Assembly: GCA_025611195.1 (NCBI GenBank)
Contig: GCA_025611195.1_4718.2
Source of the DNA: a phage
Length of the DNA: 64,000 nt
Strand: one strand, 5' to 3'
Positions 32,134-46,554 of this stretch are shown here, piece after piece. Each line of letters opens with the position of its first letter. Position 1 is the first letter of the stretch. The notes beneath the pieces were generated by a model. It made no database searches. It was not told where the DNA came from and saw only the letters and a list, made by a program, of their open reading frames with translations. The position numbers and the translations under genes were made by a program.

Positions 32134-34723
32134 TTAGCAATGGTTGTTAGTTGCTTCTATTTCATCAAGATACGGTTCTACGTCATCGCCCTCCACGAAT
32201 TCGTTGAACCAACAGTCAATGGTAGAAATAACCGGTGACTGGTGTTCACATTTCTTAGATACCTTAAAAGGTACGTTATTATCCATCATACCGAGTTCGG
32301 GTCGAAAACGCCCGAAATGTTTCGCAGTCCAAATGTCTGGGACGATATGGTTGTTCATCGTGGTGTTCAGCATGAGTCGCTACCTCATACCCGCAGCTTT
32401 ACCTGCAGCTTCCGGTGTTACCGGAATGTCCAGAATACATCTTATCCATATTCCAAATGGAACGTAGGACTTCCGCGCTGGATCTCGCTTGAGACCACGT
32501 ATTCGTTGAACGTTCTCCTGAACGGAGCTTCGCTGCTGATCGAACATTGTCGTGTACGGTAGGCATCCCCGAAGGGATTGTCATTGAAGCCGCGTACATC
32601 CGCTACCTTGTTTCTACCTTATCGGTTCCTCTTACGAGGCGTAGCGGCCTTAGCCCTTCCCAGCAATTCACGGAATCCAAGCTCTTCCTTTCGGAAGGCA
32701 GGGCCTATGATTAAGCATCCCCGTCGCTGTTATCGACTATATCTTCATCCTCGTTGCGAGGAGTCTCCCGTTTGGGTCTGTGTTTAACAGAGCCTACTCT
32801 ACTCAACATCGCGTCTTTCGATAGTCTGTGAGCACACATCTTAACGAACATTCGTGGATTCCTAAACAGGTGAACGTTCTTGTTGAGATGCTTCGCTGCG
32901 GATTATTCCCGTCCTACCTCTTTTACCGTACCCAGTTCATTACGCTGGCCCTCATCTATGTCACCATGATGAGTTGGTGTGTAGTCCGATTACAGAAACT
33001 TCCCGTCAATTAGAGAGTTTTAACTACGTTCCTGTTACCAGAAACCAGATCCCGACGGTATCAATAAATCAACGTAAGTTATTGATTTAATTGAAAAACT
33101 GAAATCTGCATTATCTAAATCTTCAGTATGGTTCGCTACTCCATACCCGTACCTCATGTACTGCTTACGTCTTTCACGTAAGGATAGACTATATCTTTCA
33201 CCCTCAGCATTATCTGGTCGGGGCTCCCATTTCGGCGGTCAGATGACCGGTGGTTTCCCACGCCGCTTGGCCCTAACGCCCGTAAGCGATAGTCGTTGAG
33301 CACATCTCCGTTCTGGAGACTTCGCTGCGGATTCCCCAATCCTTGCCGCTTTTACCGTACCTGAATGATTAGTTCAGCCCCACGCTCTGTTCCCAGGCAT
33401 GGTTGGTGGACGAGGCTCTAAGTAGGTTCCCGCATTAGAGAGTTCCTCGTAACAACATTTCTGCGTTACTGGGCCTAACGACCCTTTCAAGATCATCACG
33501 CTTAACCCGATGGTGTTATCCTGCGGATCGCGTTTAACCTTGGTGATTTCAAGACATTGGTTACTGCTTCGGTCAAGTGATGGGTTTCGAACAAAGCCGC
33601 ACACAATCCCATCGAACGGTGTATCAGCAATAAGCTCATCATGCAGCTCGCTCATCATCGGATGATAATTACGGACATGTTCCGCAACGAACGCACGTGC
33701 TGCTCTCGGTGAATAACCGCGATGGAATAACTTGGATTGGATATGTTCTTTATTGGTTAAAGTAAATGGTGCGTATGGGAAATGCAGATGATAATAACGA
33801 TGGTTCGCTGTTATCGAACTGATTACGGTACGCGTGGTGAATGGATGTAATGTACCTAATATGTTTTTACGCGTGATACCTTTCTTCTTACCGATGAACT
33901 CATCGAAAATCGCCGCGTGGTATTGCAGCAGCTTCAATTGCACTTTCGCCATCCAGTTTTCTTTCTTTCTGGCGCTCAAAGGTGTTGTTGGATGATAGAT
34001 ACTATTCAGTGTACCAATAGCATCGATCGCACCTTCCATTTTGCTATCTGCATAACGGCCGGTCGGTGTATTTTCGATAACGAACATCATGGCCGCAGGA
34101 AAGCTGATATACTGACTGAAGAACTTATCACGATGGATACGGATGAATTCTCGTAGCGTGTCAACTTTCTCTGTGTTCTTCGGTCCACGTAATGTGGGTC
34201 CTTTATACAAGATCTCCATGATGCGATCGAAGTTCTGTATAAAGCTATTTACACCACGCCGTATCCCGAATACATCAAATTGCTGCTCCAGATAGTTCTT
34301 GAGTTCAATGGGTCGTTTTACATTTGGACGGTAACTGGCATCAATGAGCCACGTCATCGTTTCGAAGCTTTTGATATTCAACTCGCTTGCCAGCACGAGA
34401 TGGACCAACGGGTTAATGAACGCATCGATTCCTTCAGGGACACGCGCCCAGACCGTCGAACGAATCTCCTGTTCTGCTGGGTAGGTTACAACCGTTTTAC
34501 AGTTTGGACACACCGTGCCGAGCAACTCACCGCGATTGTAGAAACCACAACCACATTGTGGCGTGATATCCAACGTATCGCTGGAGTAAACACGGGTGAT
34601 AAAACTGTTTAATTTCTTCTTCTCTTCGACGACTTTTGTATCGTAATCGTTCAACAAAATCGGCGTAAAGGGAAGTTCTGCGAGCTGTCTATCGAAACTC
34701 ACGATATCGAGCATGATGGCCAT
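32134..34723 (-). CDS. multisubunit RNA polymerase beta-prime, N-terminal subunit; proposed 4 exons (34723-33490, 33120-33102, 32726-32714, 32367-32134) split by three group I introns
   Basis: Exon 1 has the Zn-finger (CGCG..CPNC) and RNPSLDRSSNQCLEI (cf NRAPTLHRLGIQAFEP); micro-exons encode LDNADF and DGDA; last exon NTTMNNHIVP (cf QMAVHVP); exon lengths 1234+19+13+234 = 1500 nt keep frame; unspliced ORF ends in intron read-through. Confidence 0.5.
32368..32713 (-). other. group I intron C (ORF-less, about 346 nt)
   Basis: P AATTGCTGGGAAGGG with Q ATCAGCAGCGAAG (compensatory GCTG/CAGC), R CAACGAATACG with S AAGATGTATTC (compensatory P7 change); 3' tail homologous to intron A. Confidence 0.45.
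32727..33101 (-). other. group I intron B (ORF-less, about 375 nt; 3' domain unusually short)
   Basis: P AATTGACGGGAAG, Q AATCCGCAGCGAAG, R GTGCTCACAGACTATCG, S GAAGATATAGTCGATAAC; only about 8 nt between S and the proposed 3' splice G. Confidence 0.4.
33121..33489 (-). other. group I intron A (ORF-less, about 369 nt)
   Basis: Minus-strand elements P AATGCGGGAACC, Q GAATCCGCAGCGAAGTC, R GTGCTCAACGACTATCGC, S AAAGATATAGTCTATCC in correct order; possible P1 pairing exon GAUCU with GGGUC; boundaries approximate. Confidence 0.5.
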
Positions 34724-34815: not shown

Positions 34816-36711
34816 TTAGAACAGGTTGAATGCTCCACCCATGTTGTTACCACCAACATTCGGACGATCGCTACGTGCATAGATGTTGCCGGAGATGTTA
34901 CCCAGACCACGAGCACGTGCTGCTGTGTTACCACGAACGGCGGTACCTGCCAGATGCTGGATGTTCTCAGGACGGATGGTGAAGCCAGCTTCGGCAGCCG
35001 CTTCAATCAATGCCGCAAGCGCATTCGGTTCGAAATCGTAACGCATTGCCCAACCGGTTTGTTCCCAGCTACCAGACAGAACGCGATCGATGATTTCGTG
35101 ACGAGCAACAACACGCTGAGACATCGACATATCGGTACGGTCGAAGCTGTCTTCCCAAGCTTCTACGGTATCCGGGTTAGTGATGTTCATCATGTACAGA
35201 TCGTCCATATCACGAATATCGTGACGGTTACCGTCCTGGTGGTTGTAGTGACCCAGCGGGATACGGTTACCAGTAGCGTAGACTAACGGTTGGCCGTATT
35301 GATATTTCTTGCTGAAGCAACCCAGGGTGGTATCATCGAATGCACGATAGAGTGCTTTATAGCCTTCGGAGATTTCTTGAACTTTACCGTCAACGTTGCC
35401 CGTAAAGATCTTCTCAGCTGCAGGGATCATACGCAGCAACCAGCTATATTCGCCTTCTTCCGGTACGTCGATAGAAATCAGCAGAGACGGATACAGTACC
35501 TGTTGCAGGAACTTGTAAATCTGCTCGTTGGTTTGAGTAGACAGATCCAGCGGTGCAGTAACTTCCGGATCCAGTACCATCGCCAGAGCACCCGGGTTAT
35601 GCGGACCAATACCACGAGCAGCGTTGCTGATTAAAGACTGCGCCCACGCCATACCGCTGTTCAGCGTAGCGATGGTACCAATCAGACCCAGCACAAACGT
35701 GTTCGGAGTGAACGCATCCAGCTCCAGCGGGTAGGCGCTGGTCATCACGTAACGCGGTTGGTACTGTACAGTCGGCGGTACCGGATAACCGTTAACCAGA
35801 ACAGGACCTTGGTTGAAGGTCGGGTTCTGCGGGCTGTAGGTCAGGTCAATGTAACCAGTGGTTGCGACCAGGCGCTGTTGACTATCGTAATCGCTCATCG
35901 CTTGACGGATACGGTTAGAGATAGTTACAGTGATGTCAGAACGCACTGGGTTACCGACGATATCGCTGTCCTGCATACCGCTGGTGTTGTACTGAACGCT
36001 GCTGATCGGCTGATCGCTTGCCATCATGCCCAGGTTGAACTGCGGCAGACCCAGTTTATCGCCGAGACGGATTTCGATCGCGGTTTGGATTGCGTTATCT
36101 GCAGCAGACAGCAGGGTGGTTGCCAGATGCGCAGATTCAGCAGTGATTTCATTGGTCACCACAGCCAGACCGGCGATACGAACAGTACCGTTAGCCTTAC
36201 CGCCAATAGCCGCATACATTGCCGCCATGACTTCGTTGATGAACGTGCCGTTCAGGTTATCAACCCAGGTACGCGGTACCAGAATGTTACCATGCGGACC
36301 TTGTTCTTCACGACGCGGCAGCGGAGCCAAACCGGCAACCAGCGGAAGCACATAACCGAAGAAGTGGTTATGGTCACCAACTTTTGCACCGCTCATAACA
36401 ACCAGGGTCGGATACGGTACACTGTACTGGTTAGGATCGACGGTCACCATGATGAAGTCGTCTTTGAACCCTTTATCTTCCAGTTCTTTCTCCATCAGAC
36501 GACGGAGATTCAGTACCTGCTCGGAGCCAGTATTACGGCTAATACGACGGCTCAGTGTACGGTTGATCGTACGCATCGTATGAGTTACTTTAGGCTGGCC
36601 AGCAAAATCTGCAGCGGTTTCCAGCGCCTCATCAGCACGTTGTGCGGTGCGGGTTTCAGCTGCACGAATTTCTACATTATCGTTACCGTTATTACGTACG
36701 TCTAAGCCCAT
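34816..36711 (-). CDS. chimallin (phage nucleus shell protein) candidate
   Basis: 631 aa, the size recalled for known chimallins; directly upstream of the beta-prime N gene as recalled for phiKZ gp54-gp55; strong preferred-codon bias; first gene after promoter motif 36781-36800; no sequence comparison possible. Confidence 0.4.
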   Translation of the reverse strand: MGLDVRNNGNDNVEIRAAETRTAQRADEALETAADFAGQPKVTHTMRTINRTLSRRISRNTGSEQVLNLRRLMEKELEDKGFKDDFIMVTVDPNQYSVPYPTLVVMSGAKVGDHNHFFGYVLPLVAGLAPLPRREEQGPHGNILVPRTWVDNLNGTFINEVMAAMYAAIGGKANGTVRIAGLAVVTNEITAESAHLATTLLSAADNAIQTAIEIRLGDKLGLPQFNLGMMASDQPISSVQYNTSGMQDSDIVGNPVRSDITVTISNRIRQAMSDYDSQQRLVATTGYIDLTYSPQNPTFNQGPVLVNGYPVPPTVQYQPRYVMTSAYPLELDAFTPNTFVLGLIGTIATLNSGMAWAQSLISNAARGIGPHNPGALAMVLDPEVTAPLDLSTQTNEQIYKFLQQVLYPSLLISIDVPEEGEYSWLLRMIPAAEKIFTGNVDGKVQEISEGYKALYRAFDDTTLGCFSKKYQYGQPLVYATGNRIPLGHYNHQDGNRHDIRDMDDLYMMNITNPDTVEAWEDSFDRTDMSMSQRVVARHEIIDRVLSGSWEQTGWAMRYDFEPNALAALIEAAAEAGFTIRPENIQHLAGTAVRGNTAARARGLGNISGNIYARSDRPNVGGNNMGGAFNLF

Positions 36712-38126: not shown

Positions 38127-40280
38127 TTATTCTGCAGTTTCTTGCTTCGGTAAATAACTTGCTGCGATGTCTTGGGCCAACAATGTATTGTTTTTATTCG
38201 AGATGAAAATACCGTAACTTTCCATTAACGCATAATACGAACGAACGAGCGTAGAGATCAGTCGACGAATATCCATACCTTGAATAAAGATATCAGGAAG
38301 CCCGGAGGCTTCGATCACTGGTAATGGTATCGTTAAGTTGCTTATCGTTTTCTTATCGTTACGTACAATCCAATCACGGAAACGTTGTTGTAACCCTTTA
38401 TCCTCCCAGGAATCAATCCAATCATTAAGAAGCGTTTTGTTCTTCGTCGCCAACGGTACACGAACCCCAACATAAGGTGGTTCGGGGCAATGGCCGTACG
38501 ATTGAGCAAACACTTCTTCCCACATATCGTAAGACTGTTTCGTTACCGCAACATGTGGTTTCACTTTAACACGTGTTAAGAAATCCGGATCGCCACGTTT
38601 CATTGATTCAACGATTTCGTTCTCTAGTGAGATAATATCGTCAAGAACCAATCGAATGCTGATCTTCTCATTACGTAACAGCTTATCCATTATACCACAC
38701 ATCATGCGTTCAACACGTTGGACGATTATTTTTGGTGCTGACGCATCACGCATAACAGGACCTTTCAACTCCAGCTTCGGTGGGTTGATGGGAACCCCTT
38801 CACGCATGGTCATGTATCCGTAATAGTTTTTACCCATCGAGGTTAACGACAGAATTAAGAACATATATTCGTTCTTCATTTCCATTACGTACATATGCTC
38901 TTTCGCTACACCGATATTACCAGAACACATCGCCATCAGATGAACCGTAATCTGCGTAACCAGATAGATAAGCGTGTTTGCTAAGCGCGTCGAAATCGGA
39001 TTGATCTCCATATTTCCAAATCGCCACTGAACCCACTCCTGGCAGGTAAACACCGTCGAGTCGGTATCAGACAACACACCCACTTCACGGATTGCTGACG
39101 GAAAAGCATAAACACCAGCCGGTTGGTTCTCGGTACGCCAGAACGCCTTAATTAAATCAGCGTAGCTTTGGATGCGTTGCAACATTAATTTTGTCGTTGC
39201 TGCAGTAAGACGATAACCAAGTTCATTTCCTTTTTCTAGCGCTACGTAAATCGCTTCCCCGTTCAAGAACTCCGTGCATTGTGCTGTAATCCAAGCGACC
39301 GTGTTGTTATCCATGGAAGCAATAATGGCTTTAGCCTCTTCCATCGTTTCAACAGGCTCGGATGCCAGTTCACATAACGAGTCAAGAAAATCTCGAACAA
39401 ATTCAGGATTAAGCTCACGTAACGAGTACAGGTTATTGCTGTACATGTAGCAGGCGCGTTCCAACGGCGTTAAACCGGTAATTAGCTCCCGGATGGTCAG
39501 TTCTTTCTCTGGGTCGAAAATATATCGATGCAAGCATTTCGATACGTTAGCCCAAACCTCTTCCGGTGTAGGGTAATGCAGTTTGTATTTTACCATTACC
39601 TGCTCAATGGCTTTACGATCGCTGTTACGGACAATGCTCACAATGTTTTCAATTGCGATATCGCAATCGTAATAATGGAAATTACCCGCAAGGAAGCGTT
39701 CGTTGTTCGCATTGGCTGAACCTGAAGCACAGCGACATGTTGTCGTTAAACTTGGATGCGCGATCGGATTATAAAAAGGGTTAAACTTGGATGCCTGTGT
39801 TCCTGATAAACTGTTGTTGTCTAACTTGGTGTTGGTTTGTCGTTTATCGTGTAACTCAGCTTCGTCTTTACGTCCATGGGCTTGCGCTATCGACATTTGT
39901 TTCTTTTGTTTCTTACGCAACTTACCGTTTTCAACCGCAAAGTCGCTTAGCACACTGGAACGTGTTTCACGCGGATAACAGTTAGCCCATACCGGCGTGA
40001 TAATTAAATTATTTTCTTTAATATCATTGAAGTATTGGCTGAACTTGATGACTTCTTTTTCTCGGTTTCCTTCAGTACGCTGTGTTAGTACAAGGCAGTC
40101 GGGATCAACCATCCCGTATTTTCCACCAGGACTAACCGTATCAAGAACAAACTGCAACGCTTCCCGCTGAGAAATCCCACGCATGCGCATTAAGAACAGG
40201 GTATAATCCTGTACCGCTTCTTTGGTCATATCCAACGTACGACCATATCCGTTTTCATCGTAAAAGAACGGATTTTCCAT
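38127..40280 (-). CDS. large hypothetical protein (717 aa); weak candidate RNAP beta N-terminal portion
   Basis: YGHCPEPPYVG loosely resembles beta YGRVCPIETPEGPNIG; also contains SDTDS; assignment speculative. Confidence 0.6.
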   Translation of the reverse strand: MENPFFYDENGYGRTLDMTKEAVQDYTLFLMRMRGISQREALQFVLDTVSPGGKYGMVDPDCLVLTQRTEGNREKEVIKFSQYFNDIKENNLIITPVWANCYPRETRSSVLSDFAVENGKLRKKQKKQMSIAQAHGRKDEAELHDKRQTNTKLDNNSLSGTQASKFNPFYNPIAHPSLTTTCRCASGSANANNERFLAGNFHYYDCDIAIENIVSIVRNSDRKAIEQVMVKYKLHYPTPEEVWANVSKCLHRYIFDPEKELTIRELITGLTPLERACYMYSNNLYSLRELNPEFVRDFLDSLCELASEPVETMEEAKAIIASMDNNTVAWITAQCTEFLNGEAIYVALEKGNELGYRLTAATTKLMLQRIQSYADLIKAFWRTENQPAGVYAFPSAIREVGVLSDTDSTVFTCQEWVQWRFGNMEINPISTRLANTLIYLVTQITVHLMAMCSGNIGVAKEHMYVMEMKNEYMFLILSLTSMGKNYYGYMTMREGVPINPPKLELKGPVMRDASAPKIIVQRVERMMCGIMDKLLRNEKISIRLVLDDIISLENEIVESMKRGDPDFLTRVKVKPHVAVTKQSYDMWEEVFAQSYGHCPEPPYVGVRVPLATKNKTLLNDWIDSWEDKGLQQRFRDWIVRNDKKTISNLTIPLPVIEASGLPDIFIQGMDIRRLISTLVRSYYALMESYGIFISNKNNTLLAQDIAASYLPKQETAE

Positions 40281-43963: not shown

Positions 43964-44054
43964 ACTCTTTTCCTAAGTCCCCATTGTTTATACACACGAT
44001 ATCTGGGAATAGTTAAAATATACGGCGTAAAACGAAATAGGAGAGTTTCTGGCA

Positions 44055-44375
44055 TCATTTTCTCCCTCTTCGAATACCACCGATACCTCTTCGATCCAAG
44101 ACGTCCCAAGCACGCTTTATTTCCTCCTCCGTCGCTCTGGTATCTGGAGGAACAACCATAACACAATCGTGCAACGGCCAATGCGCGGGTCTGGGGTCAG
44201 CGAACAGATTATCCCATTCAAGCGTCCATTCTTTCTTTGAACGATTATAGTAGAGCGTAAGATACGTGTTGGTATATGCTGGGTAACCACGCATAACTTC
44301 AATATTCTTACGATCCTGGCGTTCCTGATTCCAGTCGTTAAATCGTTTTCTTATTTTATCCCACCACTCTCCCAT
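44055..44375 (-). CDS. hypothetical protein (106 aa)
   Basis: ATG at 44375 with AGGAGAAA RBS; the longer track ORF would read across hairpin 44398-44419. Confidence 0.5.
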   Translation of the reverse strand: MGEWWDKIRKRFNDWNQERQDRKNIEVMRGYPAYTNTYLTLYYNRSKKEWTLEWDNLFADPRPAHWPLHDCVMVVPPDTRATEEEIKRAWDVLDRRGIGGIRRGRK

Positions 44376-44397
44376 GCTTTCTCCTACGCGGCATAAA

Positions 44398-44419
44398 AGC
44401 CTGCCCCGAAGGACAGGCT
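44398..44419 (-). terminator. stem-loop AGCCTG/CAGGCT
   Basis: Inverted repeat between the zinc-ribbon gene and 44055-44375. Confidence 0.4.
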
Positions 44420-44428
44420 CGATAGAAC

Positions 44429-44629
44429 TTAATAACCATCCAATTTCAATGAAGGATGGTTGACGATATGTGCGTGTTTTGCTGGGTCGTATGGCTGATA
44501 TGGAAAATAGCCATGCCACTGACGACCTTGGCATTTCGTACACAAGAACCGACCATCGCCACGCTGATTCTCGTAAGCGAGTTCAGTACTATCAACATGA
44601 CCGCAACGTTCGCAGATAAACAGCGACAT
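44429..44629 (-). CDS. small zinc-ribbon protein (66 aa)
   Basis: CERCGH..CTKCQG two CxxC pairs. Confidence 0.5.
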   Translation of the reverse strand: MSLFICERCGHVDSTELAYENQRGDGRFLCTKCQGRQWHGYFPYQPYDPAKHAHIVNHPSLKLDGY

Positions 44630-44666: not shown

Positions 44667-45647
44667 TTAGAAAAGCAAGAAACCGCTGTTCTTCGCTTCC
44701 GCTACAGTTTCGTCACCAACTTTCGGTGCCTGTTGACGCGCGTTACGATGTTCGATGTAACGTTTCGCTTCGTCAGCGATTTGTTTGATAATACCCCCTA
44801 AACGATCGGTACTTAAAACAAACGACGTCGCTTCACGAATCGGGCTGCTTTCAGGCACAAAACCATCACAGCTGTAAATAGCGTTAACACCCATGACTTT
44901 AGTCGCGTCTTTCGGATAAAGCGTACAGAAAGCAATAGGACTATCGTTCTCTTTCGTCCAATCGTATCCCATGAACGTATTCAGTTCGGTGATCGTTGGT
45001 TCCAAACCGGTAACACGCGGATGGTTTAAGAAGTTTTCCAGGTCGGCGCTGTCAAGACGACGGTTCTCGCCAGAAAACAGAACACAAAGCTGGCTAATAA
45101 CAACCTGCACGTCCAGGTTGACATCCTGCTCCGATTTCCCATTTTCGCCATTCATGTGATAGCTAACAATCACCGGACGTTTCAATCCTTCTGCAGCTGC
45201 CATCAGTCCTTTAAAGGTACGATCGGCGTTGATCGTTTGACGCTCATCATCGAACGAGGCAACGATGCAACACACCACACGTTCACCGCGTTCCAGCAGG
45301 TTAGCAACCAGCGCAGGACCTGCAACAGAACCTGAACCACCGCTCAGACTAAAGACCACGATATTAAATTTACCTGGTGTATGCTTATTCAGAATACCTG
45401 GGATTTGTGAACAGATCAGTTCAGCGTTCTCATCACGCTTCTTACCAGAACCGTCTAACTCACGACCCGCCGCATCTTTAAAGATGTAGATATGATCGTC
45501 GTCCAGTGCGCTATCGCGTAGGTTAGCCCGGCTGGTATCAACATACGTCATGCTGTGTAATCCTTTCGCGACTTCGCCTTCAAACGCTGAGCCGATTTCG
45601 CCACCACAACCACCAACAGCCCAAATATGTACTTGGTTCTCTTGCAT
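44667..45647 (-). CDS. phuZ: tubulin/FtsZ-like GTPase (PhuZ-like)
   Basis: N-terminal IWAVGGCGGEIG glycine loop and SLSGGSGSVAGP (cf tubulin/FtsZ GGGTGSG signature); AGGAG RBS. Confidence 0.55.
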   Translation of the reverse strand: MQENQVHIWAVGGCGGEIGSAFEGEVAKGLHSMTYVDTSRANLRDSALDDDHIYIFKDAAGRELDGSGKKRDENAELICSQIPGILNKHTPGKFNIVVFSLSGGSGSVAGPALVANLLERGERVVCCIVASFDDERQTINADRTFKGLMAAAEGLKRPVIVSYHMNGENGKSEQDVNLDVQVVISQLCVLFSGENRRLDSADLENFLNHPRVTGLEPTITELNTFMGYDWTKENDSPIAFCTLYPKDATKVMGVNAIYSCDGFVPESSPIREATSFVLSTDRLGGIIKQIADEAKRYIEHRNARQQAPKVGDETVAEAKNSGFLLF

Positions 45648-45711
45648 GTGAACTCCTAATTTAATATGTATTTAACGTACAATGAATCTTTCTTTGCTAA
45701 AGGGGTGACCC

Positions 45712-46554
45712 ATGGGTGCTATTGACCACAGTGTAGATCGTATCTGTCGTACAATACCGGCAGATATCCTACAGTATTGCTATATCGATCGTTACGACTG
45801 GCGTAATCGCTATCCTCGTTCCGTAGAAGACATCATTACCGATTGGGTAATCCGTAAACGGGTTATCGGCGACATCGATATCTACGGGGGACTACAAACC
45901 GTTATTCCCCTTGATGATGCAGGTGTCACTATCGAAGAAGTCACCATTAACTGTTATGTTTTCCACATTCCGTTGGAAGCCACGCAGGGGCGTTATATCA
46001 CGTCCGCATTATCCATTATTTCAGGGAGCGTGAACAACTACGGAATAAACTATAACGGGCAATGGGGTGCTTTCAACCAAACCCAGTTTCAACGTCAGCT
46101 TTGTGGATGGAACCCCGCAAGCAACGCGTTACAGCAAGGGATGAACGCTTTCGGTCCTATGAACGTTCTTAGTACAGCTAACGTTGATATCATCGCCCCT
46201 AACACCATCATGGTGAACAACGTCACGCCTGTACAATTTCCCCTGAGTCTACGTTGTTTCCTTGCCCACGATCCGGAACTTACTAACCTCAGCATGGAGG
46301 TTTGGAACGACTTCTACAAACTCTGTTTATATGCCACGCAAAGTGACATCTACAACAGAACCGTTATCCGTCTCGATAGAGGTGTTACAGCACAAGGACA
46401 AGAAGTCGGTGCATTCAAGGAATACATCGATCGCTTTGCTGATGCTGAAAACACATATCAGGAATTCCTGAACGAAACGTGGGCAGGCGTTGCTGCGTGG
46501 AACGATCCGCAAACTAAACGTCGCGCCATTCGACTACAAACCGGCTACTTCTGA
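45712..46554 (+). CDS. hypothetical protein (280 aa)
   Basis: ATG with AAAGGGG RBS; hairpin 46566-46592 downstream. Confidence 0.6.
   Translation: MGAIDHSVDRICRTIPADILQYCYIDRYDWRNRYPRSVEDIITDWVIRKRVIGDIDIYGGLQTVIPLDDAGVTIEEVTINCYVFHIPLEATQGRYITSALSIISGSVNNYGINYNGQWGAFNQTQFQRQLCGWNPASNALQQGMNAFGPMNVLSTANVDIIAPNTIMVNNVTPVQFPLSLRCFLAHDPELTNLSMEVWNDFYKLCLYATQSDIYNRTVIRLDRGVTAQGQEVGAFKEYIDRFADAENTYQEFLNETWAGVAAWNDPQTKRRAIRLQTGYF

Follow-up and report, generated by a model that had tools for sequence, protein, structure and literature searches.

Does the open stretch at positions 44667-45647 of the 64,000-nucleotide phage DNA analysed here (the window) encode a phage tubulin, and would the filaments of such a protein centre a phage nucleus in the infected cell? 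Both were proposed from the letters of the DNA alone, the first on account of two motifs, a glycine-rich loop and a second segment, resembling the GTP-binding signatures of tubulin and FtsZ. We addressed the questions by profile, sequence and structure searches, by comparison with related phages, and by relating the results to the published cell biology of PhuZ.

Identification of the phuZ gene

The feature proved to be one real open reading frame, located on the minus strand, which the sequence-only reading had left unstated. It fills the interval exactly, from the ATG at 45647 to the stop codon, which is included, at 44667.

44667-45647, minus strand: phuZ coding sequence, 326 aa plus stop, orthologue of Goslar gp234
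45653-45657, minus strand: Shine-Dalgarno sequence AGGAG, 5 nt upstream of the phuZ ATG, read from the sequence

A search of the PHROGs profiles returned PHROG 4733, 'tubulin PhuZ', with an E-value of 2e-68, residues 1-323 of the protein being aligned with positions 1-321 of the 323 in the profile. According to a sequence search of the PDB, the nearest solved relatives were all PhuZ proteins: 9pm9 and 9pmk (E = 5e-218), titled 'PhuZ Tubulin from phage Goslar', phiKZ gp039 PhuZ (3zbp and 3zbq, 4e-29), and 201phi2-1 PhuZ (3r4v, 3rb8 and 3j5v, 8e-15). Megablast against 50,697 phage records found a single close relative, Escherichia phage vB_EcoM_Goslar, with 96.7% nucleotide identity, in which the matching gene is annotated as 'tubulin PhuZ' (gp234, YP_009820885.1); the same type of search against complete E. 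coli genomes gave no matches to phuZ. Using tblastn, homologues of the protein were found in 173 phage records, mostly those of large-genome phages annotated as tubulin or PhuZ.

The Pfam model PF00091 (Tubulin, the Tubulin/FtsZ GTPase domain) scored 30.2 bits on the window protein, just below its gathering cut-off of 33 bits, and Goslar PhuZ likewise remained under the cut-off with 29.9 bits. PF22334 (TubZ_C_2, the phage-tubulin C-terminal domain), which scores 57.6 bits on more distant PhuZ proteins, was not detected in the window protein by Pfam, and no NCBIfam model matched it. Because of these three results, PhuZ of the Goslar clade, which unlike that of phiKZ and 201phi2-1 misses the cut-offs of both Pfam models, forms a divergent branch of the PhuZ family. 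The low PF00091 score is a limit of the sensitivity of the model and is not evidence against a tubulin fold.

Genomic neighbourhood

The whole window (1-64000) is collinear with positions 135,524-200,192 of the Goslar genome at 93-96% identity. Weighted by length over the 64 kb, the identity is approximately 94.8%, near the 95% commonly taken as the species boundary. Collinearity with the Goslar annotation also placed RNA polymerase subunit genes, a DNA polymerase and the large terminase in the window, together with the gene of the nuclear shell protein, chimallin.

34816-36711, minus strand: chimallin, orthologue of Goslar gp246 and collinear with it (PHROG 4795, E = 1e-54)
45712-46554, plus strand: portal adaptor (DUF7484), orthologue of Goslar gp233 (PHROG 3179, E = 4e-62; PF24302 match)
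44429-44629, minus strand: 66-aa four-cysteine zinc-ribbon protein, orthologue of Goslar gp235, 37 nt downstream of phuZ
44397-44420, minus strand: intrinsic terminator, a hairpin followed by UUUUAU, closing the unit of phuZ and the zinc-ribbon gene

The chimallin gene, coding for the structure on which PhuZ filaments act, lies approximately 8 kb from phuZ, and its presence together with the collinearity with Goslar identifies the phage as a nucleus-forming Goslarvirus (family Chimalliviridae). Upstream of phuZ, the portal adaptor gene is transcribed divergently, with 64 nt between the two. The adaptor was considered as a PhuZ partner on account of the conserved pairing and was rejected, since in the cryoEM structure of the Goslar virion gp233 is the portal adaptor of the neck.

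Downstream, the terminator is a hairpin whose 10-bp GC-rich stem carries a UUCG loop (folding energy -18 kcal/mol, z -2.6); a simple consensus terminator scan missed it, folding recovered it, and its counterpart in the Goslar record is likewise annotated as a terminator. As judged from this arrangement, the zinc-ribbon gene is predicted to be co-transcribed with phuZ. Past the terminator, a minus-strand gene at about 44054-44374 (orthologue of Goslar gp236) carries a presence/absence polymorphism of 189 bp (63 codons, 44131-44319); the window, L003 and L005 have the segment, and it is missing from L004 and L006.

A sigma-70 scan upstream of phuZ gave hits that were not above those of shuffled sequences, and no promoter was identified. 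In the 64-nt upstream region, the 10-mer TTGTACGTTA (45673-45682) has 17 matches with at most one mismatch, compared with 6.4 ± 2.9 expected. It was, however, picked post hoc out of 55 k-mers for being the best, and at least one of its copies (38359-38368) lies inside the DNA polymerase gene; the significance is for these reasons doubtful, and we make no promoter claim for it.

Fold and relation to other tubulins

An AlphaFold2 model of the protein was obtained with a mean pLDDT of 87 and a pTM of 0.87. In a Foldseek search of the PDB, the model matched 9pm9 (TM-score 0.91), phiKZ 3zbq (0.81) and PhuZ-201 3r4v (0.79), with values of 0.77-0.81 across 3zbq, 3zbp, 3r4v and 3rb8. The PhuZ structures were followed by TubZ of phage c-st, archaeal CetZ, many FtsZ and eukaryotic tubulin, all with a probability of 1.00. 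The matches to PhuZ, TubZ, CetZ and FtsZ establish the tubulin fold, and both kinds of search on which the sequence-only reading had staked its proposal, profile and structure, yielded such matches (PHROG 4733 at 2e-68, Foldseek at probability 1.00).

The two-domain GTPase fold and the glycine-rich T1 and T4 loops are common to the window protein and to TubZ, CetZ, FtsZ and eukaryotic tubulin, but the identity to these proteins is 10-16%, the TM-scores are 0.5-0.7, and their roles are different (plasmid partition, cell shape, division and microtubules). The canonical tubulin signature GGGTG(S/T)G is replaced by SGGSGSV in the window protein.

One of these branches raises the possibility of a TubZ-type partition GTPase that would segregate the genome of a plasmid or prophage by means of a TubR adaptor and a centromere. 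The TubZ structures 4xcq and 3v3t do match the fold (E about 1e-12, TM 0.64-0.66), and the deposited structure of phiKZ PhuZ bears the name TubZ; however, the identity to the c-st TubZ structures is 12-14%, and PhuZ structures rank far higher. Moreover, the genome is that of a lytic chimallivirus, and the genes flanking phuZ encode the portal adaptor and the zinc-ribbon protein, with no TubR-like gene found among them. Contradicted by both the neighbourhood and the fold ranking, a partition role is exceedingly improbable. Membership in the PhuZ family, as opposed to another tubulin branch, is supported by the sequence comparisons, and the original call of a Tubulin/FtsZ-like PhuZ is borne out by the PHROG profile, the near-identity to a solved PhuZ, the fold of the model and the chimallin-encoding Goslarvirus genome.

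Nucleotide-binding and catalytic residues

The protein was aligned with 22 gathered homologues, from 98% down to 28% identical (23 sequences in total), and its functional segments are as follows.

45591-45617, minus strand: T1 phosphate-binding loop VGGCGGEIG, aa 11-19, at the junction of strand 1 and helix 1 of the model
45435-45452, minus strand: GSGKKR, aa 66-71, predicted T3-type gamma-phosphate loop; G66, G68 and R71 invariant in the alignment
45315-45350, minus strand: T4 tubulin-signature loop SLSGGSGSVAGP, aa 100-111, at the junction of strand 4 and helix 4 of the model
45042-45056, minus strand: LDSAD, aa 198-202, with the catalytic aspartates D199 and D202, both invariant
44670-44729, minus strand: C-terminal tail, aa 307-326, ending in DETVAEAKNSGFLLF, of lower model confidence

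Both motifs quoted in the sequence-only reading are present and, in the model, sit where GTP-binding loops are expected: VGGCGGEIG between a strand (6-11) and a helix (12-26), which is the position of the T1 loop in the superfamily, and SLSGGSGSVAGP between strand 94-100 and helix 105-119, the position of the T4 loop. In T1, conservation reaches at least 90% at G12, G13 and G15; in T4, it does so at S100, S105, G106, S107 and P111, with G103 and G104 invariant. GSGKKR would correspond to a T3-type loop by its position in the fold. The GTP-binding loops are intact (T1 GGxG, T3-type GxGxxR, T4 GGSGS), each listed glycine or arginine being invariant or at least 90% conserved in the alignment. D199 and D202, found in 23/23 sequences, correspond to D187 and D190 of PhuZ-201, as counted along the HMMER alignment to the PDB sequence. 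The complete set of invariant residues comprises D37, T38, S39, N42, G66, G68, R71, G103, G104, V108, N140, Y163, N166, D199, D202 and G262.

Beyond the globular domains, the model has a long helix (281-306), a short helix (312-321) and a low-confidence terminus, the mean pLDDT being 74 for residues 301-310, 57 for 311-320 and 45 for 321-326, with residues 322-326 below 50. G322 and the hydrophobic C-terminus (GLVL/GFLLF) are conserved in the PhuZ family. By analogy with PhuZ-201, the tail may have a role in filament contacts.

Comparison with Goslar PhuZ and selection

Goslar gp234 has the same length of 326 aa and is identical to the window protein at 322 positions (98.8%), including all motifs and the C-terminal tail; its gene also has the same neighbours, namely the portal adaptor gp233, the zinc-ribbon gp235 and the terminator. 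The four differences (window to Goslar) are A47T, D49G, D229E and N255S, and the 9pm9 chain differs from the window protein at the same four positions. These sites are also polymorphic among ten full-length Goslarvirus PhuZ proteins and occupy variable columns in the family alignment. The four natural changes may adjust the dynamics of the filaments, or the compatibility of co-assembly between co-infecting Goslarviruses, although we hold this to be a weaker idea than that of a zinc-ribbon partner discussed below.

At the nucleotide level, phuZ differs from its Goslar counterpart at 32 positions, 27 of which are third codon positions, and dN/dS is 0.038. Four other assemblies encode an identical PhuZ, with 12-28 synonymous and no non-synonymous differences in the gene. 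The low dN/dS and the lack of non-synonymous changes in the four relatives show that phuZ is under strong purifying selection.

These data bear directly on whether the gene could be a decaying or non-functional tubulin relic, as might be thought of a protein that is dispensable and often lost. According to a review, PhuZ is accessory, absent from about one third of Chimalliviridae and non-essential in other phages, and the Pfam scores reported above are sub-threshold. Such a reading is contradicted by the selection data, both the dN/dS and the purely synonymous divergence of the four relatives, and it is further opposed by the intact set of nucleotide-binding and catalytic residues, the full-length reading frame with a good ribosome-binding site, and the PhuZ peptides that have been detected in Goslar preparations; we consider the chance of a relic to be negligible. 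Since PhuZ is accessory, and non-essential in other phages, its contribution to fitness is uncertain, yet the dN/dS value shows that this accessory-classed gene is strongly maintained in the Goslar lineage.

Proposed mode of action

The account of the mechanism best backed by the evidence is the one published for Goslar. The PhuZ monomer would bind GTP via the T1 (GGCGGEIG), T3-type (GSGKKR) and T4 (SGGSGSV) loops, and the monomers would polymerise head to tail, with the D199/D202 loop of each subunit completing the GTPase site of the subunit that follows. Hydrolysis of GTP within the filament would in turn make the filaments dynamic. The filaments would then wrap the chimallin-shelled phage nucleus as a vortex, pushing on the cell membrane, and this pushing would rotate the nucleus; the rotation is believed to distribute capsid docking and DNA packaging across the nuclear surface.

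Most of these steps have counterparts in published experiments. GTP-dependent polymerisation into dynamic filaments was reported for both Goslar PhuZ and PhuZ-201, and the D190A mutation of PhuZ-201 abolished GTP hydrolysis together with filament dynamics. In Goslar-infected cells, GFP-PhuZ forms a vortex of filaments that rotates the phage nucleus. Goslar PhuZ D202A is dominant negative: it abolishes the vortex, strongly reduces the rotation of the nucleus and lowers the concentration needed for assembly. Goslar nuclei are off-centre, and D202A leaves their position unchanged. With 98.8% identity between the two proteins, we infer that the window allele would behave like Goslar PhuZ with respect to filaments, vortex and D202-dependent rotation.

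The other mode of action on record is a bipolar spindle, anchored at the cell poles, which centres the nucleus at midcell; it is established in the literature for the Pseudomonas phages phiKZ, PhiPA3 and 201phi2-1. The phages phiKZ and 201phi2-1 are, like the phage of the window, chimallin-bearing jumbo phages, and their PhuZ proteins (gp039 and gp059, respectively) belong to the same family and share with the window protein the fold (TM 0.79-0.81), the T1, T3 and T4 loops, the catalytic aspartate pair and the C-terminal tail. In addition, two long flanking filaments were seen in some Goslar-infected cells. However, the identity to Pseudomonas-phage PhuZ in structural alignments is only 23-26%, whereas Goslar, with a PhuZ 98.8% identical to that of the window and a collinear genome, makes a vortex, which rotates the nucleus without positioning it. 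The cell biology of Goslar thus contradicts a centring spindle, and we regard it as highly unlikely for the window phage. The statement in the sequence-only reading that PhuZ filaments centre the nucleus is correct for the phiKZ-like Pseudomonas phages and does not extend to the Goslar lineage, with its vortex, its rotation and a nucleus position insensitive to D202A. According to a review, the factors that choose between the spindle and the vortex organisation are unknown.

We are highly confident that the product of this gene is PhuZ, the tubulin of a nucleus-forming Goslarvirus, and that it would act by the vortex and rotation mechanism of the Goslar type.

The zinc-ribbon protein

The small protein encoded behind phuZ is conserved beyond the closest relatives. 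Eight of its residues are invariant in seven phages (C6, C9, C30, C33, W38, H39, Y47 and N57), and the gene is intact in 4/4 close relatives examined. It directly follows the PhuZ gene in the relative L007 and in Xanthomonas phage LucasX, whose PhuZ proteins are 56% and 33% identical, respectively, to that of the window. The gene also lies downstream of PhuZ in Pseudomonas phage pPa_SNUABM_DT01, at a distance of about 1.8 kb. In Xoo-sp14, the gene lies beside the adaptor gene and has no adjacent PhuZ. A 132-aa gene occupying the position of PhuZ in Xoo-sp14 was tested as a possible PhuZ remnant and is not one.

The synteny of the zinc-ribbon gene with PhuZ is suggestive of a link between the two, short of proof. 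Family annotation yielded only a weak resemblance to IS1-type zinc ribbons, and a literature search found no publication mentioning gp235. Considering the predicted co-transcription with phuZ and a synteny reaching as far as LucasX, the protein may conceivably act with PhuZ as a factor so far unrecognised, such as a nucleator, an anchor or a regulator of filament organisation, although we think this unlikely.

Occurrence in public assemblies

The exact PhuZ protein is already public under the name 'hypothetical protein', for instance as ECF3570976.1 from Salmonella Enteritidis, and also in assemblies of E. coli O157 and Shigella. We found it on 75 contigs of up to 241 kb, and carrier contigs measuring 234-241 kb were also seen in another search. 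The uninformative label is explained by the PhuZ proteins of the Goslar clade falling just under the Pfam cut-offs and having no NCBIfam model. A report of 2025 raised the number of Goslarvirus genomes from 1 to 237, and that of species from 1 to 38, with sequences residing in assemblies of bacterial isolates; the carriers of the exact PhuZ in isolate assemblies are consistent with the 'bacterial assembly-associated phage sequences' of that report. The host range of Goslarvirus includes E. coli, Salmonella and Shigella. As the identification of PhuZ is already known and there is nothing new in the gene itself, the practical value of the present result lies in the annotation of PhuZ in public assemblies, and it is of little value as a discovery.

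An apparently split RNA polymerase gene

Elsewhere in the window, three group I introns appear to interrupt a gene for an RNA polymerase beta-prime-like protein (32134-34723, minus strand), which is the orthologue of gp247 together with 'gp185' in Goslar. Group I intron-like cores came up at the Rfam E-value threshold, all on the minus strand: 32727-33093 with 46.9 bits, 33165-33501 with 29.6 bits, and a partial one at 32471-32675 with 16.7 bits. None of these scores reaches the Rfam gathering score of 50 bits, and at the gathering threshold no Rfam family matched the window. A tRNA search of the window found none. A splice model was built as follows:

34723-33481, minus strand: candidate exon 1
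33480-33115, minus strand: candidate intron 1, 366 nt
33114-33102, minus strand: candidate exon 2, a 13-nt micro-exon
33101-32727, minus strand: candidate intron 2, 375 nt
32726-32714, minus strand: candidate exon 3, a 13-nt micro-exon
32713-32380, minus strand: candidate intron 3, 334 nt
32379-32134, minus strand: candidate exon 4

In this model, each candidate intron ends in G, follows an exon whose last nucleotide is U, and lies within the codons of the catalytic NADFDGD motif. Conceptual splicing gives a protein of 504 aa in which the motif is restored across the junctions (ILKG, YNADF, DGDA, RLML, in the segment ILKGYNADFDGDARLML) and which aligns continuously with uninterrupted homologues from Klebsiella phage Eowyn (residues 6-483, E = 6e-100) and Erwinia phage Ea35-70. 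On this computational model, the three introns appear to be spliced to restore a beta-prime-like protein. A scan of a viral collection for the exon junctions found neither intron-containing nor intron-less ones. The read-through product of exon 1 is encoded by only one other public contig.

The protein encoded by exon 1 is identical to that of Goslar (407/407), whereas the introns differ. The first one (366 nt) is absent from Goslar, the window having an extra 368 bp at about 33115-33482. The second is a version, devoid of HNH, of the intron annotated in Goslar: the window does not contain the HNH endonuclease cassette gp186 of about 1,065 bp (NC_048170, 168217-169281), the corresponding junction being at about 32728. 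In Goslar, the cassette is bounded by a 13-bp inverted repeat (TACGTGCACCGAC and GTCGGTGCACGTA) near the 3' end of the middle intron. The third intron is common to both phages and is unannotated in Goslar, where 'gp185' represents the last exon. Endonucleases carried by introns in the RNA polymerase genes of chimalliviruses are already known from PhiPA3.
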